This document shows, one piece after another, positions 1 through 15,834 of a stretch of 64,000 nucleotides of DNA. Within the stretch, counting starts at the first letter, position 1. Each line of letters begins with the position of its first letter. The stretch is from contig JAKABO010000006.1 of the NCBI GenBank assembly GCA_021796835.1, positions 3,325 to 67,324 on the forward strand, in the 5' to 3' direction. The position numbers and the translations under genes were made by a program. The DNA is from Pseudomonadota bacterium (GTDB lineage Bacteria; Pseudomonadota; Gammaproteobacteria; Burkholderiales; Ferrovaceae). The notes below the pieces were generated by a model. The model was not told the DNA's origin and made no database searches. It worked only from the letters and a program-made list of their open reading frames with translations.

Positions 1-196
1 TTTTGGTGGCCTGGCCTGCACAAGAATGCGCGCTTTTGTTGCTGGAACAGTCATTCATACCGGCTTTGGCGATGCCAAAACATTTATCCATATTTTTCAT
101 GTCCATTTTATTGTTTGGGGCGGCACCAGCATTGGCTACCAGTCCGAGGGTCAGCAAACCGCCGATAGCGGCTAGCAATACTTTTGATTTATCCAT
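1..196 (-). CDS. DUF2282-family secreted Cys peptide (bufferin BufA-like RiPP precursor); 3' end runs off the window
   Basis: Absent from the ORF track because it has no stop in the window. Hand translation from ATG at 196 (minus): MDKSKVLLAAIGGLLTLGLVANAGAAPNNKMDMKNMDKCFGIAKAGMNDCSSNKSAHSCAGQATK... This is a signal peptide followed by the DUF2282 core 'KCFGIAKAGMNDC...HSCAGQ'. Confidence 0.75.
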   Translation of the reverse strand, partial: MDKSKVLLAAIGGLLTLGLVANAGAAPNNKMDMKNMDKCFGIAKAGMNDCSSNKSAHSCAGQATK

Positions 197-295
197 TTTG
201 ATAGTCTCTGTGTGAGTTGAACGAGTGGAAGCGAAATATGAGCCTCCGAGTGATTAGTCGAATACCTCCTGAATTTCTTACAGAAAAAAAACACC

Positions 296-314
296 AATCG
301 AATTTTATTCGATT
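296..314. promoter_or_regulatory. Perfect 8-3-8 palindrome AATCGAAT-TTT-ATTCGATT upstream of the DUF2282 gene (candidate operator)
   Basis: Read directly. It lies about 100 nt upstream of the ATG at 196. A related TCGAAT/GATTAG half-site occurs at 251-264. Confidence 0.3.
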
Positions 315-461
315 AGAAATGCCACTTTTGGTCAGAATTTTTCTCACAGATGTTCAAACTGCTCCCGGATTTCAAATATCCAAGAGCGATTCATCTTGTG
401 TTTTCAGGAGGTTCACTAAATCAACTCTGTAGTCTGACCTGATTGGACAGGGCTTCATGCC

Positions 462-2284
<1,823 letters not shown>

Positions 2285-2287
2285 GGT

Positions 2288-2563
2288 TCATCTTCTGAGA
2301 TCAGCCGGATAACCGGCATCTTCGGTTGCCTTGGTCAGTTTCTGAATACTGGTCTTAGTATCATCAAAGGTGACAATGGCTTCGCGTTTATTCAAGATGA
2401 CTTCAACTTTGCTCACCCCATCGACTCTGGTAAGCGCTTTCTTGACAGTAATCGGGCATGTTGCGCAATGCATACTGGGAACAACCAAGGTAACGATTTG
2501 GGTGGCAGCCCACACAGGGGCCACAATAGCAAGGGCAGTAAGTAAAGCAACCAGTTTTTTCAT
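2288..2563 (-). CDS. merP: Periplasmic mercury-binding protein MerP
   Basis: Signal peptide, then 'ATQIVTLVVPSMHCATCPITVKKA'. Near colinear with Tn501-type MerP as recalled from memory. The metal loop reads SMHCATC rather than GMTCxxC. Confidence 0.9.
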   Translation of the reverse strand: MKKLVALLTALAIVAPVWAATQIVTLVVPSMHCATCPITVKKALTRVDGVSKVEVILNKREAIVTFDDTKTSIQKLTKATEDAGYPADLRR

Positions 2564-2575
2564 GAGGACTCCTGA

Positions 2576-2929
2576 TCAATAGAATAAAGTAGCAACATAA
2601 GGGAAACCGAGTGCGCCCAACACCAGCGCAGCAACAATCCAGAAAATGAGTTTGTAGGTGGCATGTACCTGCGGGATAGCACACACTTCACCTGGCTTGC
2701 ATATCTCTGGCGAGCCGAATATGCTCCGCCCACCAAAAAACAGTGCTATCAGCGCAGCACCAATGAAAAATGGGCGATACGGTTCCAGCATTGTGAGGTT
2801 TGCGATCCAGGCGCCGCTCACCCCTACAGAAAGGAGAACCAACGGCCCCAAACAGCAGGAGGAGGCGAGAATCGCTGCCAAGCCTCCTGTGACGAGGGCA
2901 CTAACTCCATGTTTTTTAGGTTTGAGCAT
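2576..2929 (-). CDS. merT: Mercuric ion transporter MerT
   Basis: Contains 'SSCCLGPLVL' in TM1 and a second Cys pair 'ICKPGEVC'. Start taken at MLKPKKHG (ATG 2929), giving 117 aa. Confidence 0.9.
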   Translation of the reverse strand: MLKPKKHGVSALVTGGLAAILASSCCLGPLVLLSVGVSGAWIANLTMLEPYRPFFIGAALIALFFGGRSIFGSPEICKPGEVCAIPQVHATYKLIFWIVAALVLGALGFPYVATLFY

Positions 2930-2964
2930 GTTTTCACTCTTTCGAATATGTTTTGAACAAGGTA

Positions 2965-2995
2965 ACCTTACTTCCGTAGTCATGTACGGAATCAA
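2965..2995 (-). promoter_or_regulatory. merTPA promoter with MerR operator
   Basis: Minus strand reads TTGATT-CCGTACATGACTACGGAAG-TAAGGT. That is a -35, a 19-bp spacer carrying the dyad TCCGTA-N6-TACGGA, and a -10, as in Tn501/Tn21 mer operators. Confidence 0.85.
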
Positions 2996-3000
2996 GCGCT

Positions 3001-3459
3001 ATGAAAAATATTTTTGAGAATCTGACTATTGGTGGCTTTGCCAAAGCGGCCGGGGTCAATGTTGAGACCATCCGGTTTTATCAACGCAAAGGTCTGGTGT
3101 CTGAACCGAGCAAGCACTACGGTAGCATTCGACGGTATACCGAGACGGATGTAGCGCGAGTGCGATTTGTGAAATCAGCCCAGCGCTTGGGCTTTAACCT
3201 GGATGAAATCGCCAAACTGCTAAGATTGAACGATGGCGCACACTGTGACGAAGCCAGCCTCCTGGCCGAGCACAAACTTCAGGAAATACGCAATAAGATG
3301 ACTGACCTGACGCGCATAGAAACCGTACTGTCCGCGTTGGTGTGTGCTTGTCACGCACAGAAGGGAAATGTCTCCTGCCCGCTGATTACATCGCTGCAAG
3401 GCGAGAAAAGGCATGGCAGTACAGACGAAACGCATAACCGAGCAGCGGAACTGCCTTAA
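3001..3459 (+). CDS. merR: Hg(II)-responsive transcriptional regulator MerR
   Basis: Contains '[26 protein letters not shown]' (HTH) and the Hg-ligand Cys pattern 'HCDEAS...CACH...VSCPLI'. It has a short C-terminal extension. Confidence 0.95.
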
Positions 3460-3518
3460 GGCTTTGTCTTTTGGCTTCGCTACCTGAGCGATGGGTTGAA
3501 AACCAACCGCCGCTGCGA

Positions 3519-4601
3519 TCAGAATCGAGCCAGCAGGAAGGCGATCGCCCCGGCCATGGGCAGGGTCGCTACCCACGACAACAAAATTCCCTGCAACACT
3601 TTCCGGTCCAGTGACTGGGCTCCCGCTCCTATACCTGCAATGGACCCCACTGCAACATGGGTTGTGGACACAGGAAACCCAAAATTGCTGGCAAAAAGAA
3701 CTATCATGGCCGTGGTCATATTCGCCATCAACCCCGGAACAGGATCCAATCGGGTCATCCGTTGACTCATGGTGACAGCCACTTTCTTCGCAAATAGCAG
3801 GCCCCCGGTAGCCATCATCCCGGTCACCATCATGACCGCAGACTGCGCTCCCGTTCCTGGGGTCACCAACAACAACGCCGCAAGCTTGGGCGTATCGTTC
3901 ACCGCCCGAGCAAAGCAAATAGACATTGCCGATAACGCATGGAGATGATCAAAAAAACGAGAGGAGGAAAACAAAATTTGGGGACCGATTTGTTCGCAAA
4001 CCACCTGGGGAGCCACCATGAGTTCAACTGACGACATGCTACGTTGCTGCACCAGTGAACCGTTGGTCAATAATCCAGTGGCCGGTTCAGAGACCACCAC
4101 ACAGGCACAATCATTTTCCGGACTGCGCCATTTAATTCCCAGTTGAAGGACCAAACTGATGGCTGCGGCCACTATCGGGCTGAGTAGCAACGGATAAAGA
4201 AATGTGTGTAGCAGCGGTCCCCAATTCACCCCTCCGCCGGGTTGTCCCAATCCTGCGCCGATGAGCCCACCGATCAAAGCATGGGTGGTGGACACCGGAA
4301 ACCCCAATCGGGTTGCCAGCAAGACCGTTGCTCCAGCCCCAGCCGCCACCTCAAACATAAAGGAAGACGTGTGCACGATCTCGGCAGAAACCAACCCTTT
4401 GCCGGAAAAACTCTGGACCAACGCCGTGGCCAAATAGACGGAAACCAAACTTCCCGCTACCGTGGCCACCGTAGCCAGTTGCAGCGCCCGTGGGTAGGAA
4501 AGGGTGTTTGATCCCCAGACGGTGGCAAACCCCTTGAAATTATCATTCGCCCCGTTGCCAAAGGCCACCAATAATGCAACGATCATCAATCCGCTATCCA
4601 T
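3519..4601 (-). CDS. PiT/PHO4-family inorganic anion (phosphate/arsenate-type) transporter
   Basis: Contains 'GANDNFKGFATVWGS' and a second-half 'PVSTTHVAVGSIAGIG' repeat, with multiple TM segments. SD GAGAGGGGG lies upstream. Confidence 0.8.
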   Translation of the reverse strand: MDSGLMIVALLVAFGNGANDNFKGFATVWGSNTLSYPRALQLATVATVAGSLVSVYLATALVQSFSGKGLVSAEIVHTSSFMFEVAAGAGATVLLATRLGFPVSTTHALIGGLIGAGLGQPGGGVNWGPLLHTFLYPLLLSPIVAAAISLVLQLGIKWRSPENDCACVVVSEPATGLLTNGSLVQQRSMSSVELMVAPQVVCEQIGPQILFSSSRFFDHLHALSAMSICFARAVNDTPKLAALLLVTPGTGAQSAVMMVTGMMATGGLLFAKKVAVTMSQRMTRLDPVPGLMANMTTAMIVLFASNFGFPVSTTHVAVGSIAGIGAGAQSLDRKVLQGILLSWVATLPMAGAIAFLLARF

Positions 4602-4637
4602 GCTTGCCCCCTCTCAATCCACCACTCCTGACCTGCC

Positions 4638-5678
4638 CTAGCAGCATGAACCGGCAGCATCCTCGCTACGCTTGGTATCAAAGGGAATGCAGGATCCACA
4701 GCCTGCAAACAATCCGAAATGCCGGTCAAAATCACCGATAAATTCAAAATGATCAGCGAACCGGGTATCCTGCAACAGACGAAAGGTATTGCCACAAACG
4801 GGAAATACCCGCCCCGTTTCCATGGAATGGTGTTTGTCGAAATCAAACCGGTATAACTGCTCAGGAATGGATCCCTGGTAAATCACCGCCTGTCCATGGT
4901 CTTCACAGGCGTCTTCGAGGTTGTCCAGTTTGAACAGCCGGTAGGTGGCCGAATAAAAACGGATATTCCCCACGCGTAACGCCAATTCCGGGTCCGTGAT
5001 GTCGAGTGGGCGGTCCGCCACGAGGCGCGGGTCGGTAAATCCGGAGGCTTTCGCCAAGCGTAGGAAATCATTCCAATACAGTGCTCCTCCCAGGCATTCG
5101 CCGTAGAGTACCGGATCGTTTTGCACCGACACCGGCACACGCCGATCCGCATACACATCAGAAAAATAGAATTCCCCTCCCGGTTTCAGCAAGCGCTTTA
5201 CCCCCGCCAGAACTTGCGGCTTATCGGGAGACAGATTGACTACACAGTTGGAAACAATGACATCGAAACTCTCCGGCACCAGCCCCAGTTCGTCCAAATG
5301 CTCGATGTACCCCTGGAGGAATTGCACATTATCCACGCCGCACTTGGCGGCGTGAAACGATCGATACTGTTGCGCAACCGCGAGCTGTTCTCCGGTCATG
5401 TCCACCCCCACCACACTTCCCGTCGGCCCCACCAGTTGGGCCAGCGCATAGACATCGCGACCCGATCCGCAGCCCAGATCCAGTACGCGGCATCCTCGCA
5501 ACAAGGGGGGACAGACCAGACCGCAGCCATAGTATCTGGCGAGTACCTCAGGATGAATGTTGGCCAACAGTGGCTTCATCCACCCCGGAATCTGGCTGGC
5601 ATCACAGCACGCGGTGGTTCTCAAGTCCTCGGTACGGTGAATCTGCTTGCCATAATAATCCTGAACAATTTCGTGCAT
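4638..5678 (-). CDS. arsM: AS3MT/ArsM-type As(III) S-adenosylmethionine methyltransferase
   Basis: Contains 'DLRTTACCD', 'RYYGCGLVCP', SAM motif 'VLDLGCGSGRD', 'VSNCVVNL' and 'YGECLGGALYW'. Colinear with human AS3MT as recalled from memory. Cys-rich C-terminus. Confidence 0.85.
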   Translation of the reverse strand: MHEIVQDYYGKQIHRTEDLRTTACCDASQIPGWMKPLLANIHPEVLARYYGCGLVCPPLLRGCRVLDLGCGSGRDVYALAQLVGPTGSVVGVDMTGEQLAVAQQYRSFHAAKCGVDNVQFLQGYIEHLDELGLVPESFDVIVSNCVVNLSPDKPQVLAGVKRLLKPGGEFYFSDVYADRRVPVSVQNDPVLYGECLGGALYWNDFLRLAKASGFTDPRLVADRPLDITDPELALRVGNIRFYSATYRLFKLDNLEDACEDHGQAVIYQGSIPEQLYRFDFDKHHSMETGRVFPVCGNTFRLLQDTRFADHFEFIGDFDRHFGLFAGCGSCIPFDTKRSEDAAGSCC

Positions 5679-5715
5679 CGTTATCCCCTTTCAATGGATG
5701 AACTTGAAATAAAAG

Positions 5716-6342
5716 TCATGCTGGAATGCCAGGGCGGAATTCTGTCCACTGGGCTGGCAACCATTTCAAATCGTCCGGTCGGTCGATGTCGTGGAGCATC
5801 GGCAATAGATGCACGGTCCAACCCAACTGACCCACCCGACACAGGGTAGTGAAGGCCACCGAGTCGGTACTCCAGGCCATATCGGAAAACAGCAGCGGAT
5901 CAAACCGGTTCAGGCCCAAAGCCACATATCCGCCATCCACTGCCGGTACAAGGACCGTATCGGCCAGGGTCAAAGACTCCGCAACCTGACGCAGTCGACC
6001 AGCATCCAGTGCCGGGCAATCCGTACCGATGAGAATCACCGCTTCCCCCGTGGAAACCACGCGCGCGCCAATGCGCGCCATGCGATCTCCCAGATCTCCG
6101 GAACCTTGGCTGCTACACCGTACGGTTGGCGGAATTTTTAACGACCCCAGCATCGCATTGTCAGGAGTCAGGCACAGTTCCACCGTGCCCACGCGAGCCC
6201 GCACGGCCTCAGTCACGGTGTGCTTCAAGAGTCGCAGCGCCAATGCATGCGCCCCCTCAGCCCCCAACAATGGAATCAGTCGGGATTTGGAAAACCCTGC
6301 GTTGGGCACCTTGGCCAAAATGACGATACGAATGTTCTTCAT
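5716..6342 (-). CDS. DUF2064 transferase (rSAM/selenodomain-associated transferase 1, TIGR04282-like)
   Basis: Contains 'IVILAKVPNAGFSKSRL', 'LIGTDCPAL' and 'VPAVDGGYVALGL'. Its ATG overlaps the upstream gene's stop as ATGA. Confidence 0.7.
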   Translation of the reverse strand: MKNIRIVILAKVPNAGFSKSRLIPLLGAEGAHALALRLLKHTVTEAVRARVGTVELCLTPDNAMLGSLKIPPTVRCSSQGSGDLGDRMARIGARVVSTGEAVILIGTDCPALDAGRLRQVAESLTLADTVLVPAVDGGYVALGLNRFDPLLFSDMAWSTDSVAFTTLCRVGQLGWTVHLLPMLHDIDRPDDLKWLPAQWTEFRPGIPA

Positions 6343-7034
6343 CGATAGTCCTTGGCAAGAATTTCAGGGGATACCCCGCACCAGTAGGCAAAACGCAACC
6401 GCCACATGAGCAAAATGGTTCGACCCACTCCATGCATTTCCCATCTTCGCCCGGAAGTCACGGCTGGTCCCGTCAAGCACATCGGAGAATTCAGGCGGCG
6501 CAGACGCGCCGAAAGCGCAATGTCCTCCATGAGACTTTGATCTGGAAATCCCCCGGCCCTGTCAAAGTTGTTGCGGAGAACGAAAATTGCCTGGTCACCG
6601 GTACAAATCCCGGTTATCCGAGAACGCAAGTTCATAAAAAAAGCCACCACGCGAAGCATGGCAGGCTGGCCTTCGATCCGGACATCAAACCGTCCCCAAA
6701 TTCCCTGCCTGTCAGAAAACGCTTGATCCATCTGCGTCACCGCCGCCTCTGGCAAGCGCGTATCCGCGTGGAGAAAGAGAAGCACCTCTCCCGTTGCCGC
6801 CTGGGCTCCTGCATTCATCTGTCTGGCCCGCCCCCGACTACTGCGCAAGACGGGAAACCCTGCGGATTGCCCCAAAGCCACAGAATTGTCGCTGCTGCCC
6901 CCATCCACCAATAAAATTTCACATCCGCTTTCCCGAAACTGACGCAAATGTTCGAGTAGAGCAGGCAATGATGCTGCTTCATCAAGCATGGGAACAATGA
7001 TGGACAGTTGCTTCTTCTTATCGCCCCTTGGCAT
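6339..7034 (-). CDS. Family-2 glycosyltransferase (rSAM/selenodomain-associated transferase 2, TIGR04283-like)
   Basis: Contains 'LSIIVPMLDEA...ILLVDGGSSDNS...FLHADTRLP', a typical GT-A fold signature. Confidence 0.7.
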   Translation of the reverse strand: MPRGDKKKQLSIIVPMLDEAASLPALLEHLRQFRESGCEILLVDGGSSDNSVALGQSAGFPVLRSSRGRARQMNAGAQAATGEVLLFLHADTRLPEAAVTQMDQAFSDRQGIWGRFDVRIEGQPAMLRVVAFFMNLRSRITGICTGDQAIFVLRNNFDRAGGFPDQSLMEDIALSARLRRLNSPMCLTGPAVTSGRRWEMHGVGRTILLMWRLRFAYWCGVSPEILAKDYR

Positions 7035-7824
7035 TCAGCCTCCAATCGTAGTCCAGATAAGTAATGGGAATCTCTCCGCGCTTAATCCGGAGGCTCTGAT
7101 CCACACTCAGATTCAAGGCTGCCGCATAGTGCACAAAAAAATCAGGCAAACCATGAATTCCCATCCATCCGAAGTCAAAATCCTCGTGGTACCACTTAAA
7201 AATGGAAGACACCTTCAGATCTCCACCTTCCAGACGATTGCGGGTTTTATCACCGAGAAAAAGTTTGGTCTGATTTTCCAGTTGACTGTCCAGACGACTG
7301 CCCTGATAGGCTTCAGGTCGCAACGCCGGACACCCGATACTGGCGCAATTCAGTGCGAAATGAACACGGGGGTCGTGATAGCGACCAGATCCTCGAATCA
7401 ACCCGTGTTCAATATCATTAAGAGTACGGGTTTCTCCAAATAGCGGAATAAAAGGCTTTTGCCAGGGAGATTGAATCCAATTTCCCAAATCCTTGATGGA
7501 AACAATGTCAGGATAACCTGTCAGCACAAATTTCACGGTCCAGGCATTGTACGCATTGATTAAAAACGAGAGCTGGTCCGTCTGTGACCAATGGTCAAAA
7601 TCCACCTGTTTCACCGCAGATACCTGACTCAAATATTGGTCTAGGGAACGAATATTCTGCGCCATGCCCGCGTAATCCACCTGGGTTACCTGTCCCGCAT
7701 CGAGAATCACCACATGGGCCTTGAGCAGGCTATCCCATATCCCTTGGTCAAAATCTTTGGATCCGGCTTTGGCAACAACCGTCCCACACAGCAAAATGAA
7801 CCCAAAAATAATTTTCCTGATCAT
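7018..7824 (-). CDS. DUF547-domain protein with signal peptide
   Basis: N-terminal 'MIRKIIFGFILLCGTVVAKA', then the DUF547-like core 'FLINAYNAWTVKFVL'. Overlaps the next gene by 17 nt. Confidence 0.65.
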   Translation of the reverse strand: MIRKIIFGFILLCGTVVAKAGSKDFDQGIWDSLLKAHVVILDAGQVTQVDYAGMAQNIRSLDQYLSQVSAVKQVDFDHWSQTDQLSFLINAYNAWTVKFVLTGYPDIVSIKDLGNWIQSPWQKPFIPLFGETRTLNDIEHGLIRGSGRYHDPRVHFALNCASIGCPALRPEAYQGSRLDSQLENQTKLFLGDKTRNRLEGGDLKVSSIFKWYHEDFDFGWMGIHGLPDFFVHYAAALNLSVDQSLRIKRGEIPITYLDYDWRLNAKGR

Positions 7825-7827
7825 TGC

Positions 7828-9990
7828 TCAACCTCTACGCCAATCATGAAAGTATTCCAACCAGACCAGGATTGGTCTGGAAACATGCGCCCGCTTCCAT
7901 TCGCCAGCCGCATACCTATTGGCTTCTGCCCAAGTGGGATAGGTATGAATCGTGGATAAAATTTTGTTCAGCCCCAGCCCCCATTTCATGGCCAAAACAA
8001 ATTCAGCTATCAGATCGCCCGCATGTTCGCCTACCAGGGTGACGCCAAGAATTTTGTCTTTCCCAGGGACAGTGAGCACTTTCACAAACCCATGGGCAGC
8101 ACCATCCGCAATCGCCCGATCCAGATCATCAAGACCGTAACGCGTAACTTCATAGGCAATCCCCTGGGCCTTGGCTTCCTGTTCATTCAGCCCCACCCGG
8201 GCCACCTCAGGGTCGATGAATGTGGTCCAGGGGACCACCCGATAATCGACTTTGAATTTCCTGACGCTTCCAAACAAACCGTTGACCGCGGCGTACCACG
8301 CCTGATGGGCTGCCATGTGAGTGAATTGGTACGGTCCGACCACATCACCAGCCGCATAGATGTTGGGGTAGAGGGTTTCGAGATAGTCATTGGTGGTGAC
8401 CGTACGTTCCACCGGAATCCCCAGTTCCTCCAGGCCATATCCTTCCAGACGCGCGACTCGCCCAACCGCGCAGATCAGGACATCAAACGGAATAATTTTT
8501 TCCTGACCCTGATGGGAGACCACCAAATATTTCTGGTCGTCCACCCGCTCGCAGCGCAACGCACTATGAGCAGTCAACACCTGCACGCCATTTTGTTCGA
8601 GCGCCTGTCGTGCCAGATCCGAAACTTCGGCATCTTCCCGAGCCAGGATACGATCACCCTTTTCTACCTGTGTGACCTCGGAACCCAGTCTTGCCAACGC
8701 CTGGGCCAGTTCCGTACCAATGGGTCCCCCGCCTAAGACCACGACCCGCCCAGGTGGCGTATCGCGTTTGGCAAATTCTTCCCAGAGGGTGTCGCTGGTG
8801 ACATAGTCCGAATTCTCGATCCCCGGTAACAGCGGGACAAAGGGCTTGGCCCCAGTGGCAATGACGATACTGCGCGTAGTCAGCCGCCGTTTCTCCCCAT
8901 CCTTCAGGGTCACTTCCACCGTCCATGGGTCCACAATTCGGGCATATCCCTGCCACACTTCCACCCCCAGTCCGGTATACCGTTCCACACTGTCGTGGGG
9001 AGCCACCGTCCGGATGACTTCACGCACACGCGCCATGACATGTTGAAATGGCAATTCATGAACCGACGGAGTGAGTCCGTAGTGATCAGCATGACGTATC
9101 TGATGAGCCAACTTCGCGCTCCTGATCAATGCTTTACTGGGAACACATCCATAATTCAGACAATCTCCGCCCATTTTTCCAGCTTCCACCAGAGTGACCT
9201 TGGCCTTGACCGCTGCAGCGATATAAGAAGTGACCAATCCTGCGGCTCCAGCACCGATCACCACAATATTTCGATCAAATCGAGCCGGACATTTCCAGCG
9301 CCCATAGATTCGCCGCCGCTGCCAGAGGTTCAACCCCAGTTTGGTCAGCCAGGGGAAAATCCCCAGCAAGGTAAAGGACAGGAGCAACCCCGGACTTAAC
9401 AGACCGGACAGGTGATCGATCTGCGCCAGTTGGGTTCCTGCGTTCACATAAACCACCGTTCCGGCCAACATCCCAATCTGGCTGACCCAATAGAATGTCC
9501 AGGGGCGCATGGAGGTCAAGCCCATGAGAAGATTGATGATGAAAAACGGAACCAACGGGACCAAGCGGAGCGTGAACAGATAGAATGGACCATCCTTGGC
9601 AATTCCTGCGTTGATGGTCTTCAACCGCTCGTCGAAACGTTGCTGGACAAAATCACGCAACAGATAGCGGGAAACCAGAAAGGCCAAAAGCGCTCCCGAA
9701 CTGGAAGCAAAGGATACGATCAGCGTCCCCCGAACCACTCCGAACAAGGCGCCTGCGACCAAGGTGATCAATGCGGCTCCGGGCAGCGCTAGCGCGCTGA
9801 GGGACATGTACCCCAAGAAGTAAGCGGCCGCGACCAATGCCGGCGCTTTGGCGTTCCAATCCGAAAATGCTTGCAGACTGCTTTTGATCCCTTCCAGGGT
9901 CAACCGCTGATCGAGGCCAGCGCCATAATAGATTCCCACCACAGCAACCGGTAACATCAGGGCCAGAATGCGTTTCACCGGGTTTCTCAC
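7828..9990 (-). CDS. TVP38/TMEM64 (DedA-like) membrane domain fused to a MerA-like FAD pyridine nucleotide-disulfide oxidoreductase
   Basis: The N-terminal half is multi-TM ('LPGAALITLVAGALFG'). The C-terminal half has 'VIGAGAAG', redox-active 'CLNYGCVPSK' and a dimerisation domain. Start set at GTG 9990, which overlaps the arsS stop as GTGA. The 793-aa track ORF is an artefactual 5' extension. Confidence 0.8.
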   Translation of the reverse strand: MRNPVKRILALMLPVAVVGIYYGAGLDQRLTLEGIKSSLQAFSDWNAKAPALVAAAYFLGYMSLSALALPGAALITLVAGALFGVVRGTLIVSFASSSGALLAFLVSRYLLRDFVQQRFDERLKTINAGIAKDGPFYLFTLRLVPLVPFFIINLLMGLTSMRPWTFYWVSQIGMLAGTVVYVNAGTQLAQIDHLSGLLSPGLLLSFTLLGIFPWLTKLGLNLWQRRRIYGRWKCPARFDRNIVVIGAGAAGLVTSYIAAAVKAKVTLVEAGKMGGDCLNYGCVPSKALIRSAKLAHQIRHADHYGLTPSVHELPFQHVMARVREVIRTVAPHDSVERYTGLGVEVWQGYARIVDPWTVEVTLKDGEKRRLTTRSIVIATGAKPFVPLLPGIENSDYVTSDTLWEEFAKRDTPPGRVVVLGGGPIGTELAQALARLGSEVTQVEKGDRILAREDAEVSDLARQALEQNGVQVLTAHSALRCERVDDQKYLVVSHQGQEKIIPFDVLICAVGRVARLEGYGLEELGIPVERTVTTNDYLETLYPNIYAAGDVVGPYQFTHMAAHQAWYAAVNGLFGSVRKFKVDYRVVPWTTFIDPEVARVGLNEQEAKAQGIAYEVTRYGLDDLDRAIADGAAHGFVKVLTVPGKDKILGVTLVGEHAGDLIAEFVLAMKWGLGLNKILSTIHTYPTWAEANRYAAGEWKRAHVSRPILVWLEYFHDWRRG

Positions 9991-10955
9991 TGTAACGATC
10001 CACCGCAACTCGACCCATGACCCGCCGTGCAGCCGAAACAATGATCGGCTACTTGAATGACCAACCCATCTGGATCTATCCGCAACAGATCCCGTAAATG
10101 GGTGGATGCCCCCCCAGGGTTCCATCCCTGAACCGGCAGCCCCAGTTGCTGATTGAAATCGCAGTCGTAGAGGTGGCCGCGCCAATCCACGCTGACATGA
10201 CTGCGGCACATGACCTGGTCCAGATTTTCAGGGTGATGATTGGCTTTCAGCAGATTCATGTAATGTTTGAACTGTCCCTTCGACACCAGCATGGAGCCAA
10301 AACGCTGGATGGGCATGTTGGTCAAGGTGAAAAGCTGGTTAAACATGATCCCGAACTGCTGACCCAACACTTGCTTGTACTCCGCCTCCAGTTTCTCCTG
10401 ATTGGGAGGAAGCACAGGACCTTGGGGGTTGTACACCAGGCTAAGCATGAGCCCGGAACCTTCCCTACCGTACCCCAGAGCGTTCAGCCGATGCAGTGCC
10501 GCAATACTCTTGTCAAACACCCCCTGACCCCGCTGGCGATCCACATTTTCCCCCGAATAACAGGGCAGGGAAGCCACCACCTGAACCTGCTCGGCAGCAA
10601 GAAATTCAGCAAGATCTTCCTGTCCGGGCTCCAGCAATACCGTCAAGTTACACCGATCGATCACCCTGACACCCAGACCACGGGCTTGACGCACCAGAGT
10701 CCTGAATCCCCCATGCAGTTCCGGGGCCCCTCCGGTCAGATCCAGCGTCTCGACACCCTGAGCTTTCAATACACCGGGGATCAGTGCCAGGGTTTTTACA
10801 TCCATCATTTCGGTGCGCGTCGGTCCCGCGTTCACATGACAATGTAAACAGGATTGATTACAGCGATACCCCAAGTTGACTTGAAGGGTCGTGAATGGCT
10901 GCCGCTGGAGAAGCGGGAAATTCGTCTCCACCAACAGGGGAAGAGTAGCGTGCAT
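9987..10955 (-). CDS. arsS: Radical SAM/Cys-rich-domain protein (ArsS-type, TIGR04167-like)
   Basis: Contains the 'LGYRCNQSCLHCHV' CxxxCxxC cluster and the C-terminal Cys-rich tail 'HCFGCTAGHGSSCGG'. SD GAGGAA lies upstream. Confidence 0.8.
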   Translation of the reverse strand: MHATLPLLVETNFPLLQRQPFTTLQVNLGYRCNQSCLHCHVNAGPTRTEMMDVKTLALIPGVLKAQGVETLDLTGGAPELHGGFRTLVRQARGLGVRVIDRCNLTVLLEPGQEDLAEFLAAEQVQVVASLPCYSGENVDRQRGQGVFDKSIAALHRLNALGYGREGSGLMLSLVYNPQGPVLPPNQEKLEAEYKQVLGQQFGIMFNQLFTLTNMPIQRFGSMLVSKGQFKHYMNLLKANHHPENLDQVMCRSHVSVDWRGHLYDCDFNQQLGLPVQGWNPGGASTHLRDLLRIDPDGLVIQVADHCFGCTAGHGSSCGGSLQ

Positions 10956-11025
10956 GTAAGTTCCTCAATTCGGAAGGAAACACAAAAATATGTCCTCTCC
11001 AAACTTAGTCGGGGAACCACCTGCG

Positions 11026-11054
11026 TTATTACAACTTCGGTATAAAATTTCCAA
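11026..11054 (-). promoter_or_regulatory. Candidate sigma70 promoter of the arsS operon
   Basis: Minus strand reads TTGGAA-17 nt-TAATAA, about 70 nt upstream of the arsS ATG in an AT-rich spacer. Confidence 0.3.
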
Positions 11055-11112
11055 AGTGGATTCGTATTAGTATTTTTCGCTCGAAGAGGTGGAAAGAATT
11101 CTTGCGGCAGAA

Positions 11113-11149
11113 TTAGAAAACAGCCGGTTTGGTTGGGTTGTCACCGGCT
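11113..11149 (-). terminator. Candidate rho-independent terminator after the integrase operon
   Basis: Minus strand reads AGCCGGT-14 nt loop-ACCGGCT followed by GTTTTCT. Confidence 0.4.
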
Positions 11150-11250
11150 TAACCAACTCCATGTCCGGTCAAAGTTTATCCAGCACCTCGGCATAACGAA
11201 CAAGGTTAGATCGTGCGCAAGCCACGATCTGAACCGGAGTTTAACGCTCT

Positions 11251-11286
11251 CAAAAAAATATTCATAACGATCAGTATATTATGAAT
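11251..11286 (-). terminator. AT-rich hairpin plus T-run (candidate terminator)
   Basis: ATTCATAA-11 nt-TTATGAAT is flanked by A7 and A8 runs. On the minus strand the hairpin is followed by T7. Confidence 0.35.
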
Positions 11287-11326
11287 CAAAAAAAATCGGA
11301 GGGCACTACATGCTCGTAATTTTGGT

Positions 11327-11656
11327 TCAACTGATCAGTTTTTTCGTACCTCCAGGTGCTGGGTTGGTTCCCAATGCCCGGTAAATTTTCATCAAGTCTG
11401 GTTCGGCTACGGTGCATTTGCGTACATTCAATGTGCGCCCACCAACTGTTCTCGACAGTGCACCGTCCACTGGAATATTGCCATCAGAAACACCAACTCC
11501 GGGGCGGGGGCCGCCCTCGGTAGGCGATTTCTCTTTCATGTCGCCACTGCAACGATAATCAAGATGGCTGGAAGAGGAGCGTGATCCAGCAAGCCCAAAG
11601 GCTTGGTCGGTGACTTTATTGAGAATTTTCCAAACGCCGTTTGGCCAGCAAGTCAT
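11327..11656 (-). CDS. Hypothetical protein (109 aa, or about 70 aa from the internal ATG at 11539)
   Basis: ORF only, with no recognisable motif and weak SD sequences. It overlaps the upstream small gene by 41 nt if the long form is used. Confidence 0.3.
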   Translation of the reverse strand: MTCWPNGVWKILNKVTDQAFGLAGSRSSSSHLDYRCSGDMKEKSPTEGGPRPGVGVSDGNIPVDGALSRTVGGRTLNVRKCTVAEPDLMKIYRALGTNPAPGGTKKLIS

Positions 11657-11771
11657 TTTCTCTTTTCTGACGGATCTGCTTATTGAAATAACGCACCATA
11701 AAAATGCTGATGATGAGTATCAGAACCTCCATCGCAATAACTATGATTCCGCCTTTTTCAAATTCGTCCAT
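11616..11771 (-). CDS. 51-aa single-pass membrane protein
   Basis: Sequence: MDEFEKGGIIVIAMEVLILIISIFMVRYFNKQIRQKRENDLLAKRRLENSQ. SD AGGGGG lies 7 nt upstream of ATG 11771. One TM helix plus a basic tail. Confidence 0.5.
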   Translation of the reverse strand: MDEFEKGGIIVIAMEVLILIISIFMVRYFNKQIRQKRENDLLAKRRLENSQ

Positions 11772-11942
11772 GGTGTGCCCCCTATATATCACCTGACAAC
11801 CCAACCGGTACATTGTAGTCCAATTGTCTGGCACTGGTTATCGATCGGATAACTGTGCACATGCTTGCCGACTTGCCCGTCATACTGGCCCGCCGTATCA
11901 GCGCTTTGCAGCGCCAGTCCATTCGTTGACCACCAAAGTGTT

Positions 11943-12944
11943 CTACGCCTTCAATGGGATAGATTCCACCTGATAGGGTTTCCCGCCCTTAAGTTTCTCG
12001 TGGTAACTTCCCCATCCTGATCCCCTGGGGGCACACCGGCGCATCAGTTCATCCTGTCCCGTGAACTGGTCGAGGCCGGAAAGAAGAATGGCTTCCCGCA
12101 TCCTCGGCCTGCGGATACCTAACCAGTCGGGAGCATGGGCATGGCAGGTGAGGCAGTGCAACAATGCCTCGTAATGCTCCCTTGGTAGATTGTGGATGGG
12201 GTATTTGGCATACGCTGCCGCAATCCATTCCACCACCGTCACTTGGTGTCCCAGTAATTTTCCACGGTCCGTCAGGACCCAGTCTCCCGTGGGGGAGAGT
12301 TGGTATTCTTCTGCCTTACCTGCATCATGGAGCAACCCCACCAAGATAGCCAAGGCTTCTTTTCTGGGATCTGGTTCCTTGAGAGCAATCCGCATCATTT
12401 GAGCCAACTCGATGCTGTGAATCAGATTGCCGTTGTCGTAATTGTGATGGGCTTTCATGGAGGATGGCCCCATACAGAACCGTCGAAACCGCTCCCCGTT
12501 CCAAAAAATTGCGTTGAACAGGAAGCGATAGGGACGAGGCAATTCTTCCAGCAAAGTGATGGCTTGCTGGATCAATGACCGATCCTTGACCCAGCCGGCG
12601 GGCACCATGCGGAACAGATTTTCCTCGGGCTCAGGACATTCCATCAGGACGAGCCTGGAGATCCGAATCGCACCGTTATTTGAGGTGGGGCATTGGTTCC
12701 ACCGGGGGGAAACCAGACAAAATGGACGCAGTCTGGTATCCGGTTGACTTCGGGTCCATTCAACCTTGATAGATGCCTTGTCATGGTACAGGTGTGCCGT
12801 GTACCGTATGCACCGTTCCTCCTGCCGATGGGTAATCGAGGTCAGCCGAAAAATATAGGGCATCCCCTCGGTACATGGGGCGGTGACCCTATTGGTCATG
12901 AGGTTTTTGATTTCAGGGTACGGCAAAACATTGGAGTTATTCAT
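11943..12944 (-). CDS. OB-fold + HD-domain phosphohydrolase (YhaM-like; also resembles the HD core of TraI_2/MobH relaxases)
   Basis: Contains 'KAHHNYDNGNLIHSIE', 'LVGLLHDAGKAEEY' and 'GKLLGHQV', the YhaM/TraI_2 HD signature. ATG 12944 overlaps the integrase stop (ATGAATAA). Confidence 0.55.
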   Translation of the reverse strand: MNNSNVLPYPEIKNLMTNRVTAPCTEGMPYIFRLTSITHRQEERCIRYTAHLYHDKASIKVEWTRSQPDTRLRPFCLVSPRWNQCPTSNNGAIRISRLVLMECPEPEENLFRMVPAGWVKDRSLIQQAITLLEELPRPYRFLFNAIFWNGERFRRFCMGPSSMKAHHNYDNGNLIHSIELAQMMRIALKEPDPRKEALAILVGLLHDAGKAEEYQLSPTGDWVLTDRGKLLGHQVTVVEWIAAAYAKYPIHNLPREHYEALLHCLTCHAHAPDWLGIRRPRMREAILLSGLDQFTGQDELMRRCAPRGSGWGSYHEKLKGGKPYQVESIPLKA

Positions 12945-14226
12945 GGCACACCTCGTCTTGGGCGGTCTTGGTATCGGAAGCAACGGGATTGTCCTGGGTG
13001 ACGGCGGGCAGGTTTTGCATCAGCAAGCGCTCAAAAGCACTGCCATCCTGCCGGGTCAAGTTGGGGACATAGCGGGAGTAGACACGGAATAACATTTCCG
13101 TGGTGGTATGCCCCATTTGCCGAGCGATCCACTCAGGATTTTCTCCGGCGGCAAGCCACAGGGTGGCGGCAGTATGGCGGGTCTGGTAGGGCCGTCTGAG
13201 CTTAAAACCAAGATGGCGAAGTAAGGGGTACCATACCCGGTTAGTGACATTCTTGTTATCTAACGGCGTGCCATTTCGGGTGCAAAATACATACTCGCCT
13301 ATCCCTTTGGACACTTTTTCCCGCGTCTTCAGAGCGTCATAGACCGCCTGAGACATTTGAATATCGCGCTGAGAACTGTCGTTTTTGGTATATTCCTCTT
13401 CACCGTCGACGATGGTTTCGCGCACCAGAATCAAGCGACGTTCAAAATCAACATACTTCCACTTAAGGCCATTGATTTCCGCACTGCGCATCCCCGTAAA
13501 AAAGCGTACAGTATAGAAACTGCGGAAATCCTCACGAATAGTGGTCAGAATCTGCATGACTTCGCTCAGTGTGAATGGGTCCACATCAACGCGCTGCACC
13601 TTAAGTTGTTTGATATTTCGGTAGGGTGTGAGAAAATCAAAACGGTCGGCGGCCTCATTGATGATTTGCCTCAACAGATTAATAATTTTGTTGATGCGAC
13701 GATTAGATAGGGTGGTTTCCTTTCCGCGTGCCTGGACTTTGGCGAGATCAGCACGATAGGCAAGGATGTCAGCCTTGGTGATTCTGCTGACCTCCCAATT
13801 TCCGAAACGCGAATTCAGACGCAACTCAATGTCCGCACGAATATTTTTCTTGTGGGACTTGCGCCATTCGACCTCCTTCTCTGCATACCAGACTGCCGCG
13901 AATTCACTGAGCAACGGCGTACCTGCGACACCTTCAGTACGGATCGCCATGGTGGATTCCTTCTGAATCACTGTGCTTGGTGCGGCATGCTGAGGCAGTG
14001 AGGAAGGAATATCAAATTTTCTCGCGTTTTTGCTTCCTGGGAAAAACTTGCGATACTCAAAGGTTCCTGTCGCAATTTCAGCCTCAATGTGGTCAAGAAC
14101 CTTTTGGACTTTCTTGCGGTTAGTAATATTGTCTTTCAGCGCTGTTTGTTCCCTGCAGCGCTGGCCTTGGTACCGGAAATCAATGAATAACAGACCGGTA
14201 TCTGCTCTAGTTCTAATGCTACCCAT
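12937..14226 (-). mobile_element. int: Tyrosine recombinase/integrase with DUF3596-type Arm-binding N-terminus
   Basis: N-terminus 'MGSIRTRADTGLLFIDFRYQGQRCRE'. Catalytic region 'FFTGMRSAE...YQTRHTAAT...GHTTTEMLFRVYSRY'. Start at ATG 14226 overlaps the upstream gene's stop. Confidence 0.9.
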
Positions 14227-14449
14227 GGCACACCCCACCATTTGCCATAGGAATGGACAACTGGTCCAATTGAGAGAACATGTCTCGTTCGATGTGTTCC
14301 CATATGAACAGTATTTTCCTTCCACCGAACGGTCTGAAGTAATGAATTCCTTCGAGCAGGACACTGTCCTTGAGGCGGTCACGAATGGTTCTGGGGTCGT
14401 AGTGGATACGCGCTGAAAGTGCGTCTGTGGTCAAATAAGTTAGTGACAT
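14219..14449 (-). CDS. AlpA/excisionase-family small DNA-binding protein
   Basis: 'LTTDALSARIHYDPRTIRDRLKDSVLLEGIHYFRPFGGRKILFIWEHIE' fits the HTH_17/AlpA layout. It lies immediately upstream of int and is coupled to it. Confidence 0.55.
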   Translation of the reverse strand: MSLTYLTTDALSARIHYDPRTIRDRLKDSVLLEGIHYFRPFGGRKILFIWEHIERDMFSQLDQLSIPMANGGVCHG

Positions 14450-14454
14450 GATTT

Positions 14455-14590
14455 TCTCCGTAAACTATAATATTTTGGATGTCAAAATATTTCTTGATAT
14501 GAATAAATGACATCCTGAATAGCATATTACACGAGAAAAATCTGTTTTGCAAGCAATTATGTCATTCTGAATAAAATATATTTACGGAGG
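14455..14590. promoter_or_regulatory. AT-rich divergent control region with repeated TG(A/T)CAT(C/T)C motifs
   Basis: GGATGTCA (14477-84) is inverted relative to TGACATCC (14508-15). Direct repeat TGACATCCTGAATAGCATA (14508-26) / TGTCATTCTGAATAAAATA (14560-78). TTTACGGAG precedes both divergent start codons. Confidence 0.45.
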
Positions 14591-14595
14591 GGGGC

Positions 14596-14805
14596 ATGAT
14601 CAAATGTCATTTGTCTCGGTTGATGGGAGAACGCAAGTTGCGGATTGCTGATGTCGCACGCGAAACGGGACTACATCGAAACACAATCACGCTGCTTTAC
14701 GACGAGACGGCAAATAGGGTAGAGATGGATACGATTGAACGGTTATGCCGACTTTTTAACTGCAGGGTGGGCGATCTATTGGAGTTTGTAGACTCAAATG
14801 CCTGA
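14596..14805 (+). CDS. XRE/Cro-family helix-turn-helix regulator
   Basis: 'LRIADVARETGLHRNTITLLYDE...LCRLFNCRVGDLLEF' is a typical short HTH_26-type protein. Confidence 0.8.
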   Translation: MIKCHLSRLMGERKLRIADVARETGLHRNTITLLYDETANRVEMDTIERLCRLFNCRVGDLLEFVDSNA

Positions 14806-14941
14806 TGGTTCTTTGAATAAGGGCACGGAAACCTATCGTCAAATGGTTGGGTATAATCAACGCCTGAAAAAATCTTGGGCACAAAGTTGGACAACAATGG
14901 GAACGGAAAAGGCGCGGGGAAAAACAAGAAGGAAATTTTGA
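14798..14941 (+). CDS. Possible 47-aa basic peptide overlapping the XRE stop
   Basis: Sequence: MPDGSLNKGTETYRQMVGYNQRLKKSWAQSWTTMGTEKARGKTRRKF. The ATG lies inside the last XRE codons (AATGCCTGA). ORF only. Confidence 0.2.
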   Translation: MPDGSLNKGTETYRQMVGYNQRLKKSWAQSWTTMGTEKARGKTRRKF

Positions 14942-14970
14942 CGACTGGTCGCCTGACCCTGAGTCAGTTT

Positions 14971-15047
14971 TGGCGCGCTCGACAGGAATTGAACCTGTGA
15001 CCCCCGGCTTCGGAAACCGGTACTCTATCCAACTGAGCTACGAGCGC
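14971..15047 (-). tRNA. tRNA-Arg (anticodon CCG)
   Basis: Reverse complement: GCGCTCGTAGCTCAGTTGGATAGAGTACCGGTTTCCGAAGCCGGGGGTCACAGGTTCAATTCCTGTCGAGCGCGCCA. It folds as a cloverleaf with anticodon loop TTCCGAA and an encoded CCA. Confidence 0.9.
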
Positions 15048-15325
15048 GTGTTTGAACAAATACTAGAACACACTGATTTTAAGAAATAATTTTCGCATTG
15101 TACCACAAAGCCAAATGAGCATCATGGTGTCAGTGAGACTGACTGGAGTGGCAATCGGGAAATGTGGTCACGGACAACCGAATGTAACTTGTATTCATGG
15201 ATCCTGAATGACCCTCGGCTTCGGAAACCGATACTCTATCCAACTGAGCTACGAGCGCGTGGTGTGGTCAACCAGAACGCACTGATTTTAAACAGTGATT
15301 CTCGCATTCTACCACAAAACCGGTT
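15000..15325 (-). repeat. Tandem duplication (two units of about 115 nt, 211-nt period) of the tRNA-Arg 5' half plus its upstream promoter-like region
   Basis: 15000-15113 versus 15211-15325. The tRNA part has 2 mismatches in 48 nt. The upstream part is similar and includes TGGTACAAT / TGGTAGAAT (minus strand; 15097-15105 and 15306-15314). Confidence 0.8.
15211..15258 (-). pseudogene. Truncated tRNA-Arg copy (acceptor 5' strand through the anticodon stem only)
   Basis: Matches 15000-15047. There is no T-arm or 3' acceptor sequence to its left. Confidence 0.75.
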
Positions 15326-15350
15326 GAAAGACCTGGAGTTTGAGGGTGTT

Positions 15351-15767
15351 TCACCGCCCCCCGTGCCTATCCGGGTTCGTCTGCATCGGCGGACTGCCGG
15401 CGTCAACGGTGGACAGGCCATTTCTTCCGCAGTGTTCCCGGATCACGAGCGCATGATTGTACACCGCATCCTTTGCCCCATAGACGAGCGTCACGATGCC
15501 CCCCTTGTCCAGTTCCTGCTTCAGGCGCAGAATTTGCTCACTGTTTTCGTTGAGTTCGGCGTGGTACCGTTCCCTGAACTCCTCCCATCGACGGGGGTCA
15601 TGTCCGAACCATTTCCGGAGTTCCGTGCTGGGGGCAAGGTCCTTGAGCCACAGATCGATGCTGGCTTTCTCTTTGCTCAAGCCCCGTGGCCAGAGCCTGT
15701 CCACGAGAATGCGCCGCCCGTCCTGTCCGTCCGGCGGTTCATAGACCCTTTTGATTCTGAGGTTCAT
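15351..15767 (-). CDS. DUF488-family protein
   Basis: 'RIKRVYEPPDGQDGRRILVDRLWPRGLSKEKA...WLKDLAPS..LRKWF' is the typical DUF488 N-terminus. Confidence 0.75.
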   Translation of the reverse strand: MNLRIKRVYEPPDGQDGRRILVDRLWPRGLSKEKASIDLWLKDLAPSTELRKWFGHDPRRWEEFRERYHAELNENSEQILRLKQELDKGGIVTLVYGAKDAVYNHALVIREHCGRNGLSTVDAGSPPMQTNPDRHGGR

Positions 15768-15834
15768 GACTTGAGCGGTTTTCGTCCTGGGAAAGAACCT
15801 GGGTTCAGGTTACCAAAGATCTGTCAAAGGGGGA

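Follow-up and report, generated by a model that had tools for sequence, protein, structure and literature searches.

A seven-gene ArsS-centred operon beside mer genes in Ferrovaceae DNA, a candidate route to arsenosugar-type organoarsenicals

Seven minus-strand genes at positions 3519-10955 of a 64,000-nucleotide (nt) stretch of Ferrovaceae DNA (the window; contig JAKABO010000006.1, positions 3,325 to 67,324) are packed as one unit that runs from arsS, the gene of an enzyme of the radical S-adenosylmethionine (SAM) type, to genes for a predicted arsenite methyltransferase (arsM) and a PiT-family permease (Table 1). Between them lie the genes of a VTT membrane domain fused to a flavin adenine dinucleotide (FAD) reductase, of a DUF547 protein, and of members of the TIGR04283 and TIGR04282 families. 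We consider it probable that the seven genes are co-transcribed and belong to a modular type of ArsS-centred cluster that is widespread among proteobacteria and would turn inorganic arsenic into an adenosyl-derived organoarsenical of the arsenosugar type, probably a membrane-associated one. Arsenosugars and arsenolipids dominate the arsenic of marine food webs, and to our knowledge only the first two enzymes of arsenosugar biosynthesis, ArsM and ArsS, are known, the steps after 5'-deoxy-5'-dimethylarsinoyl-adenosine (DDMAA) being without assigned enzymes. The operon offers a compact entry to the question of which enzymes act after DDMAA.

Operon layout and the ArsS and ArsM proteins

All seven genes are joined by overlaps or by gaps of 37 nt or less. 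The TGA stop codon of arsS sits within the GTG start of the VTT-FAD reductase gene (GTGA, 9987-9990), 3 nt (7825-7827) separate the latter from the gene for DUF547, whose stop overlaps the TIGR04283 start by 17 nt (7018-7034), and the TIGR04283 and TIGR04282 genes share an ATGA overlap (6339-6342). A purine-rich Shine-Dalgarno sequence lies in each of the two remaining gaps, AAAGGGG before the arsM ATG in the 37 nt (5679-5715) that follow the TIGR04282 gene and one with GAGAGGGGG in the 36 nt (4602-4637) between arsM and the PiT gene; another, GAGGAA, is found upstream of arsS. An earlier sequence-only reading of this DNA had described the same packed unit, and every open reading frame (ORF) and junction that it listed was recovered exactly. 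Identical public contigs carry matching gene calls, among them one for the 720-residue fusion product that starts at GTG. A scan of positions 2900-12000 for consensus promoters and terminators returned fewer sites than shuffled sequences and none above chance, and is uninformative.

The family assignments made from the sequence alone were reproduced by hidden Markov model and PDB searches. ArsS scores 450.6 bits against TIGR04167, well above the equivalog cut-off of 300, with 302 of the 303 profile positions aligned, and its Cys-rich C-terminus is a DUF3641 domain (PF12345, E=7e-55). Its CX3CX2C motif for [4Fe-4S]/SAM binding, CNQSCLHC (C32/C36/C39), and the Cys-rich tail had both been noticed in the sequence-only reading; the former is invariant in 12 homologues, and in the tail the C-terminal motif HCFGCTAGHGSSCGG and the pattern HCxGCTAGxGSSCGG are likewise invariant in the 12. 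By homology, ArsS is predicted to adenosylate the trivalent dimethylarsenical DMAs(III) to DDMAA, a chemistry that PMC13598754 (its reference 74) and PMC12159101 (citing Cheng 2021) give as established for ArsS.

The methyltransferase is a class I SAM enzyme (Methyltransf_31, PF13847, 130 bits) that aligns end to end, over ~325 residues, with solved ArsMs (5evj, 8e-100; 4fr0 and 4kw7, 2e-84) and is ~50% colinear with the crystallised enzymes. When it is aligned to 4kw7 and 5evj by HMMER, its residues C24/C52/C145/C195 fall on CmArsM C44/C72/C174/C224, as expected from the proposal that it is colinear with AS3MT and keeps the As(III)-ligand cysteines; it also has a Cys-rich C-terminal tail. Because it aligns with the crystallised ArsMs, retains the four cysteines and is only 28% identical to the cyanobacterial ArsM, we assign it to an AS3MT-type lineage other than the cyanobacterial one.

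Table 1. Features of the operon and its surroundings (positions in the window)
Feature	Position	Strand	Evidence or remark
merA	462-2228	minus	NCBIfam MerA 1012 bits; ends ...SCCAG
merP	2288-2563	minus	NCBIfam 132 bits
merT	2576-2995	minus	NCBIfam 180 bits
merR	3001-3459	plus	NCBIfam 259 bits
PiT/PHO4-family anion permease gene	3519..4601	minus	PF01384
AS3MT-type arsM (predicted arsenite S-adenosylmethionine methyltransferase)	4638..5678	minus	PDB ArsM matches and aligned Cys
TIGR04282/DUF2064 gene	5716..6342	minus	TIGR04282 model; CofC/MobA-like nucleotidyltransferase fold
TIGR04283 gene, family 2 (GT2) glycosyltransferase	6339..7034	minus	TIGR04283 model
DUF547 gene	7018..7824	minus	PF04784
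VTT-FAD reductase fusion gene	7828..9990	minus	PF09335, PF07992 and PF02852
arsS	9987..10955	minus	radical SAM; TIGR04167 and PF12345 matches
AT-rich region upstream of arsS, presumed promoter region	10956..11326		no adjacent regulator gene
Tyrosine recombinase (phage-type integrase), island edge	12937..14382	minus	XerA/XerC-type matches; Arm-DNA-bind_2 and Phage_integrase on identical contig
tRNA-Arg(CCG), probable integration site	14971..15047	minus	ARAGORN

Related ArsS loci and their linkage to mtnP

A scan of one genome per species found more than 594 ArsS loci, the closest 80 of which (65-73% identity, from beta- and gammaproteobacteria) were analysed by tblastn and ORF clustering; counts refer to the 45 of them in which arsS is flanked by 7 kb or more on each side. 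TIGR04283, TIGR04282 and the VTT-FAD reductase are encoded at 40, 38 and 37 of the 45, respectively, followed by TIGR03169 (23/45), MtnP (19/45), AS3MT-type ArsM (18/45), DUF547 and DUF3047 (15/45 each), an extracytoplasmic function (ECF) sigma factor (10/45) and PiT (5/45). The complete set of seven recurs with its order unchanged, at 47-77% identity, in a Herminiimonas metagenome-assembled genome (L056), a JGI metagenome contig (L087) and a plasmid of Acinetobacter portensis (L093), so the arrangement is not unique to this genome. The junctions are as tight in the relatives, with approximate medians of -1, 3, -10 and -2 nt within the core and of 60 and 35 nt around ArsM.

The Acinetobacter cluster occupies 137070-144503 of the mobilizable MOBP plasmid pJNE5-X3_NDM-1 (NZ_CP096121), where the NCBI annotation pipeline PGAP names arsS and two 'arsenosugar biosynthesis glycosyltransferases'. 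The unit in the window belongs to this ArsS-centred 'arsenosugar biosynthesis' cluster, which NCBIfam and PGAP already recognise through co-occurrence, and is not a new kind of system; its novelty is smaller than the sequence-only reading implied, since clusters of this type are common and have been named. Genes for an ECF sigma factor, CcdA, thioredoxin, a peroxiredoxin-like protein, a YiiX cysteine hydrolase, MtnP and a sterol desaturase flank the Acinetobacter cluster. In a Steroidobacteraceae genome (L086) the ArsS cluster abuts arsR-arsC-arsD-arsA-acr3-arsC and the relaxase of an integrative and conjugative element (ICE), and arsS was found on 54 plasmid records, mostly of Burkholderia glumae. 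When the ORF clusters shared by four or more of the 80 loci were assigned by eye from representative sequences, no recurrent ars resistance family was seen.

Two families that recur in the survey deserve separate mention. A secreted DUF3047 protein, absent from the window, is usually encoded between TIGR04282 and ArsM (for example, L086 4154-4906, L088 5036-5818, L090 5129-5872, L091 5136-5879 and L028 5904-6779), and a TIGR03169 'N-terminal-to-SelD' pyridine-nucleotide-disulfide oxidoreductase (328 bits, cut-off 310) lies near arsS in, for example, L045 (4847-6001), L007 (8678-9790) and L011 (1177-2313).

The MtnP of the related loci is an S-methyl-5'-thioadenosine phosphorylase (TIGR01694, 308 bits; cut-off 275). 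In 14 loci (L010, L020, L026, L028, L034, L037, L043, L045, L049, L051, L052, L054, L063 and L078) its gene shares the strand of arsS and stands 6-46 nt upstream of it, and in at least five more it is divergently adjacent to arsS; on the Acinetobacter plasmid it directly follows the PiT gene, convergent with it (L093 16429-17292), and B. glumae plasmids carry an mtnP-TIGR04283-TIGR04282 operon (mtnP at L085 2162-3043). MtnP tolerates other 5' substituents (PMC8102628). Since DDMAA, like methylthioadenosine (MTA), is a 5'-substituted 5'-deoxyadenosine, the parsimonious reading of the linkage is that MtnP removes the adenine of DDMAA to give arsenoribose-1-phosphate; our literature search found no paper joining arsenosugars and MTA phosphorylase. 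The relatives give a testable order of reactions, from MtnP through the TIGR04282 nucleotidyltransferase to the TIGR04283 glycosyltransferase.

Accessory proteins, a proposed route and its alternatives

The TIGR04282 protein (181.9 bits, cut-off 134) carries an N-terminal motif for binding nucleoside triphosphates (NTPs), AKxPxxGxxKxRL, in which K11, G16, K19 and R21 are invariant, and it matches the CofC model TIGR03552 with E=1.8e-12 (47 bits against a cut-off of 105). Its profile finds the DUF2064 structure 3cgx (2e-36), CofC (2i5e, 4.6e-5), 3-phosphoglycerate guanylyltransferase (7p97, 2e-4), FbiD (6bwg, 4e-4) and, marginally, KdsB; apart from 3cgx, the PDB matches are all nucleotidyltransferases. 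On this evidence the protein looks like an activating nucleotidyltransferase rather than a glycosyltransferase. The TIGR04283 protein (273.7 bits, cut-off 182) has the invariant motifs VDGGSxD, HAD, GDQ and MED and a conserved aromatic, amphipathic C-terminal helix; its profile matches ArnC (3.9e-10), dolichol-phosphate mannose synthase (DPMS, 1.1e-8) and GtrB (8.6e-6), all ahead of GpgS, so that by sequence comparison its closest solved relatives are polyprenyl-phosphate glycosyltransferases, at modest E-values.

The fusion protein joins an N-terminal VTT/DedA (TVP38/TMEM64) membrane domain with six hydrophobic segments (~residues 1-215; PF09335, 81 bits) to a class I FAD pyridine-nucleotide-disulfide oxidoreductase (residues 241-700; PF07992, Pyr_redox_2, 200 bits; PF02852, Pyr_redox_dim, 106 bits), in which the CxxxxC redox pair is CLNYGC (C277/C282) and the dimer-interface HxxxxE motif lies in HTYPTWAE. 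In the COG0398 subfamily of DedA proteins a disulfide reductase is the commonest fusion partner, and this subfamily is predicted to be phospholipid-scramblase-like and not an undecaprenyl-phosphate flippase (PMC10127716). The architecture of the fusion suggests that its VTT domain belongs to COG0398, and a role as an undecaprenyl-phosphate flippase was downgraded on the same grounds. In some proteobacterial ArsS loci the two parts are encoded separately, by neighbouring genes. Because the pair also stands beside cyanobacterial arsM and arsS, VTT plus reductase is the most widely shared ArsM/ArsS partner, one that predates the association with TIGR04282 and TIGR04283 or is independent of it. 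The comparison of operons gives a first genomic context to the common and unexplained DedA(COG0398)-disulfide reductase fusion, to DUF547 and to the PiT subfamily described below.

The DUF547 protein (PF04784, 91.7 bits; gathering score 27) begins with a signal-like hydrophobic segment and has only two cysteines outside it, C160 and C165, both invariant (NCASIGCP). Its AlphaFold 2 (AF2) model is of good predicted quality (pLDDT, the predicted local distance difference test, 87; pTM, the predicted template modelling (TM) score, 0.85), and no PDB match was found by sequence or by Foldseek with this model (best E 2.4, TM <0.35), so that the modelled fold appears to be one without a solved representative. 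A search of the literature on DUF547 returned only plant expression lists and a note (PMC13621322) that a plant DUF547 domain is fused to class IV glutaredoxins; this fusion suggests thiol chemistry. A B. glumae plasmid (L085 12117-14314) carries an unrelated second radical SAM gene (465 aa) in translational coupling with the gene of a divergent DUF547 protein, 31% identical to that of the window, which suggests that DUF547 can partner other radical SAM enzymes.

The permease matches PF01384 (PHO4) with 204 bits over 339 residues and the Thermotoga PiT structure 6l85 with 8.6e-25, and falls far short of the equivalogs PitA (42 against 800 bits) and CysP (58 against 400), which places it in an unnamed subfamily of the PiT family. 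The six homologues sampled on long contigs (52-58% identity) all close an ArsS cluster, where they directly follow an AS3MT-type gene, so we regard the permease as a dedicated, optional component; the same position is taken by the PiT gene in L010, L026, L036, L042, L056 and L093.

These assignments can be assembled into a route. ArsM would methylate As(III) to DMAs(III), and ArsS would add the 5'-deoxyadenosyl radical of SAM to the latter to give DDMAA, both steps being predicted from strong homology. MTA phosphorylase, whose gene neighbours arsS in about a third of the related loci and which in Ferrovum would have to come in trans, may then cleave DDMAA as an analogue of methylthioadenosine, giving adenine and 5-dimethylarsinoyl-ribose-1-phosphate. 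With an NTP, the CofC-like TIGR04282 nucleotidyltransferase could activate this sugar phosphate or else the aglycone, after which the TIGR04283 GT2 enzyme might transfer the arsenoribosyl unit to a membrane acceptor, either glycerol or a phospholipid head group or polyprenyl phosphate. The scramblase-like VTT domain may carry the lipid-bound product across the membrane, while reducing power would come from the fused FAD/NAD(P)H disulfide reductase, which might, for instance, maintain the As(III) state of ArsM thiols or methylarsenicals. Outside the cytoplasm, the product or a thiol-bound arsenical might be handled by the DUF547 protein, which is secreted and has an invariant CxxxxC, and the PiT permease would move arsenic or phosphate oxyanion for the pathway.

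A bolder version of this route, which we hold possible though doubtful, is that the operon and a trans-encoded MTA phosphorylase supply the steps beyond DDMAA that have long been missing from arsenosugar synthesis, namely phosphorolysis, NTP activation by TIGR04282 and transfer to a membrane lipid by TIGR04283, followed by handling by the VTT-reductase fusion and the periplasmic DUF547 protein. If it were true, arsenosugar (phospho)lipids would be made by non-photosynthetic proteobacteria, including an iron oxidiser of acid mine drainage and plasmid-bearing Acinetobacter and Burkholderia, and the PiT subfamily would be a dedicated importer of arsenic oxyanions. The linkage to MtnP, the nucleotidyltransferase nature of TIGR04282, the solved relatives of TIGR04283, the dedicated PiT clade and the orphan DUF547 fold are new leads, by which the question of the enzymes after DDMAA can be put to direct test.

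Several observations weigh against an arsenic-to-arsenosugar operon, and the steps of the route do not stand equally firm. Some concern ArsM. No ArsM gene lies within 7-10 kb of arsS in 27 of the 45 loci, and the window enzyme stays below every NCBIfam ArsM cut-off (PRK11873, the best, 168 against 263 bits; NF040538, 127 against 500; NF038099, the cyanobacterial arsenosugar ArsM, 85 against 400). Of the models by which the earlier assignments were to be checked, TIGR04167, TIGR04282, TIGR04283, PF04784, PF09335 and PF01384 thus matched as anticipated and the ArsM models did not. In addition, PGAP calls the orthologue on the Acinetobacter plasmid (L093 14262-15299) only a 'methyltransferase domain-containing protein'. 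The NCBIfam models describe other ArsM subfamilies, and the full-length match to solved ArsMs supports membership in the superfamily for the window enzyme, as predicted from sequence; for this AS3MT-type clade there is an annotation gap in NCBIfam and PGAP. Others concern the later steps. The window holds no mtnP homologue, and adjacency of mtnP to arsS could instead reflect the clearance of inhibitory 5'-deoxyadenosine; tblastn with two ArsC types found no arsenate reductase in the window; and the TIGR04283 protein lacks a transmembrane segment and would be soluble or peripheral. TIGR04282 and TIGR04283 are not universally required, as a cyanobacterial arsM-arsS locus (L092) lacks them although cyanobacteria make arsenosugars. 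The recurrent TIGR03169 oxidoreductase hints at a link to selenium or to redox chemistry for which the arsenic model does not account. The searchable literature contained no report of arsenosugars from non-photosynthetic proteobacteria and made only passing mention of the TIGR04167, TIGR04282 and TIGR04283 accessions and of DUF3641, in agreement with the earlier statement that the chemistry beyond ArsM and ArsS is unassigned. We infer steps three to eight from synteny in relatives and from fold; of the whole route that had been proposed from the sequence, the family assignments and synteny lend it support, and the roles in uptake, lipid attachment and membrane handling stay at the level of conjecture.

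The frequent absence of ArsM also bears on a different substrate for the core. ArsS, TIGR04283, TIGR04282, the VTT-FAD reductase and DUF547 might act on a compound without arsenic, such as a selenium or sulfur species, with ArsM and PiT as accessories in a minority of lineages; the presence of TIGR03169 at about half of the loci counted, the name '(seleno)protein' that the ArsS family bears in its model, and the thioredoxin, CcdA and peroxiredoxin genes that recur near ArsS clusters are all in line with this. We nevertheless think it improbable, because the one ArsS reaction to have been demonstrated has DMAs(III) as its substrate (PMC13598754), ArsM is the most frequent partner outside the core, the L086 cluster abuts a complete ars operon, and genomes without an adjacent copy could encode ArsM elsewhere.

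The spacing of the genes invites another division, into a biosynthetic operon from arsS to TIGR04282 and an independent arsM-PiT module for detoxification and transport, in which methylation would volatilise arsenic and a phosphate-selective permease would outcompete arsenate. The only real intergenic gaps do flank arsM, the median TIGR04282-to-ArsM gap in relatives is ~60 nt as against overlaps in the core, and the arsM-PiT module is variably present. Such a split is unlikely, given that no promoter or terminator signal above chance was seen between the two modules, that ArsS requires the product of ArsM, that all six sampled PiT homologues end ArsS clusters and not stand-alone arsM genes, and that the gene order is kept in four distant hosts.

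It is equally hard to credit that the operon is purely a sink that turns arsenic into a benign arsenosugar or DDMAA for export, with no membrane lipid of physiological role. The unit's place next to mer on a metal-resistance island, the ars operons and ICE or plasmid backbones that adjoin relatives, and the life of Ferrovum, the source organism, in arsenic-rich acid mine drainage would all suit a sink; the membrane VTT domain, the lipid-carrier-type relatives of the glycosyltransferase and the sterol-desaturase neighbours suggest lipid chemistry instead, and a dedicated PiT importer would be odd for a sink. This reading is compatible with synthesis of an arsenosugar-type organoarsenical and does not exclude it.

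Scarcely credible, finally, is a mercuric reductase paralogue that serves the adjacent mer operon, 59 nt away from the PiT stop: the fusion has its best PDB match in MerA (5x1y, 6.5e-71; then the E3 structure 2eq6), but the fusion reaches only 360 of the 454 bits that the MerA model TIGR02053 demands, has no NmerA domain, is kept in 37 of the 45 ArsS loci without mer genes, and is not a mercuric reductase because its C-terminus (...HDWRRG) lacks the Cys pair with which the true MerA (462-2228) ends (SCCAG).

The genomic island and known systems

The operon shares its surroundings with the mer operon (462..3459) on DNA of low G+C content (0.49-0.56 over positions 1-16000 versus ~0.60 beyond), at the edge of which the tRNA-Arg gene turns its 3' end towards an integrase gene (Table 1). 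That the unit sits in acquired, lower-GC DNA beside mer had been suspected from the sequence and is borne out by the G+C step, the integrase and the tRNA; the best explanation is that the seven genes arrived together with the mer operon on an island integrated at tRNA-Arg. A direct repeat of the 3' end of the tRNA was sought in positions 1-15200 and not found, so the island probably extends past position 1. A gene for an HD-domain protein (11943-12983) and small ORFs of unknown function lie near the island edge, and on the identical public contig a BufA1-family gene, for the precursor of a bufferin-type metal-binding ribosomally synthesized and post-translationally modified peptide, starts just beyond merA and runs off the start of the window (~1-196, minus strand; L001 20760-20969), which adds a further metal-related gene to the island. 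When ArsR, two ArsC types, ArsA, ArsD and Acr3 were used as tblastn queries against the 64-kb window, no ars resistance gene was found, the sole match being a marginal ArsR-like one at 19845-19991 (E=0.008), and the earlier view that this is not a classical detoxification ars operon holds. Since the cluster is mobile, with copies on Burkholderia plasmids and on the MOBP NDM-1 plasmid of Acinetobacter besides the one that shares a tRNA island with mer in the window, complex organoarsenical synthesis may spread with metal- and drug-resistance elements.

Among known systems, the window ArsM resembles human and algal AS3MT and CmArsM/CrArsM (4fr0, 5evj) in its four As(III)-binding or catalytic cysteines and its Cys-rich tail; unlike AS3MT and CmArsM it is embedded in an ArsS operon and lies below the NCBIfam ArsM cut-offs, and its activity is predicted. 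TIGR04283 has the GT2 domain and D..D/xAD motifs of ArnC, DPMS and GtrB, and like them has a DedA-superfamily domain encoded in the same operon, but it lacks their C-terminal transmembrane helices, and the VTT domain, which by architecture is of the COG0398 type, is predicted not to flip undecaprenyl phosphate, in contrast to the DedA lipid transporters paired with those enzymes. TIGR04282 shares its nucleotidyltransferase fold and NTP motif with the CofC/FbiD guanylyltransferases of F420 synthesis, but scores far below the CofC cut-off, and no F420 genes lie nearby.

At the level of the whole operon, the closest counterparts are the 'arsenosugar biosynthesis' clusters annotated by PGAP (L093 and L056), which have the same seven genes in the same order with similarly tight junctions, although hosts and mobile contexts differ, a tRNA-Arg island with mer in the window as opposed to a MOBP plasmid in L093. 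Relatives often add mtnP, ECF sigma and anti-sigma factors, CcdA-thioredoxin, DUF3047, TIGR03169 and a sterol desaturase, all of which are missing from the window. The cyanobacterial ArsM-ArsS pathway of the Synechocystis type is more distant. In the locus compared here (L092; Pseudanabaena galeata plasmid pPg_02, NZ_CP112876, 104012-109529) a DUF3641-type ArsS also stands beside an arsenite methyltransferase, in the order TVP38, 'mercuric reductase', arsM, TVP38, arsS, so that VTT and reductase are separate there and fused in the window. The window ArsS is only 47% identical to the cyanobacterial ArsS, and the ArsM of the latter locus, of the NF038099 type, is as far removed from the AS3MT-type enzyme as noted above. 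That locus lacks TIGR04282, TIGR04283, DUF547 and PiT, whereas the window has all four; its 'mercuric reductase' is 41% identical to the reductase domain of the window, and the partnership of VTT and reductase with ArsM and ArsS therefore spans phyla.

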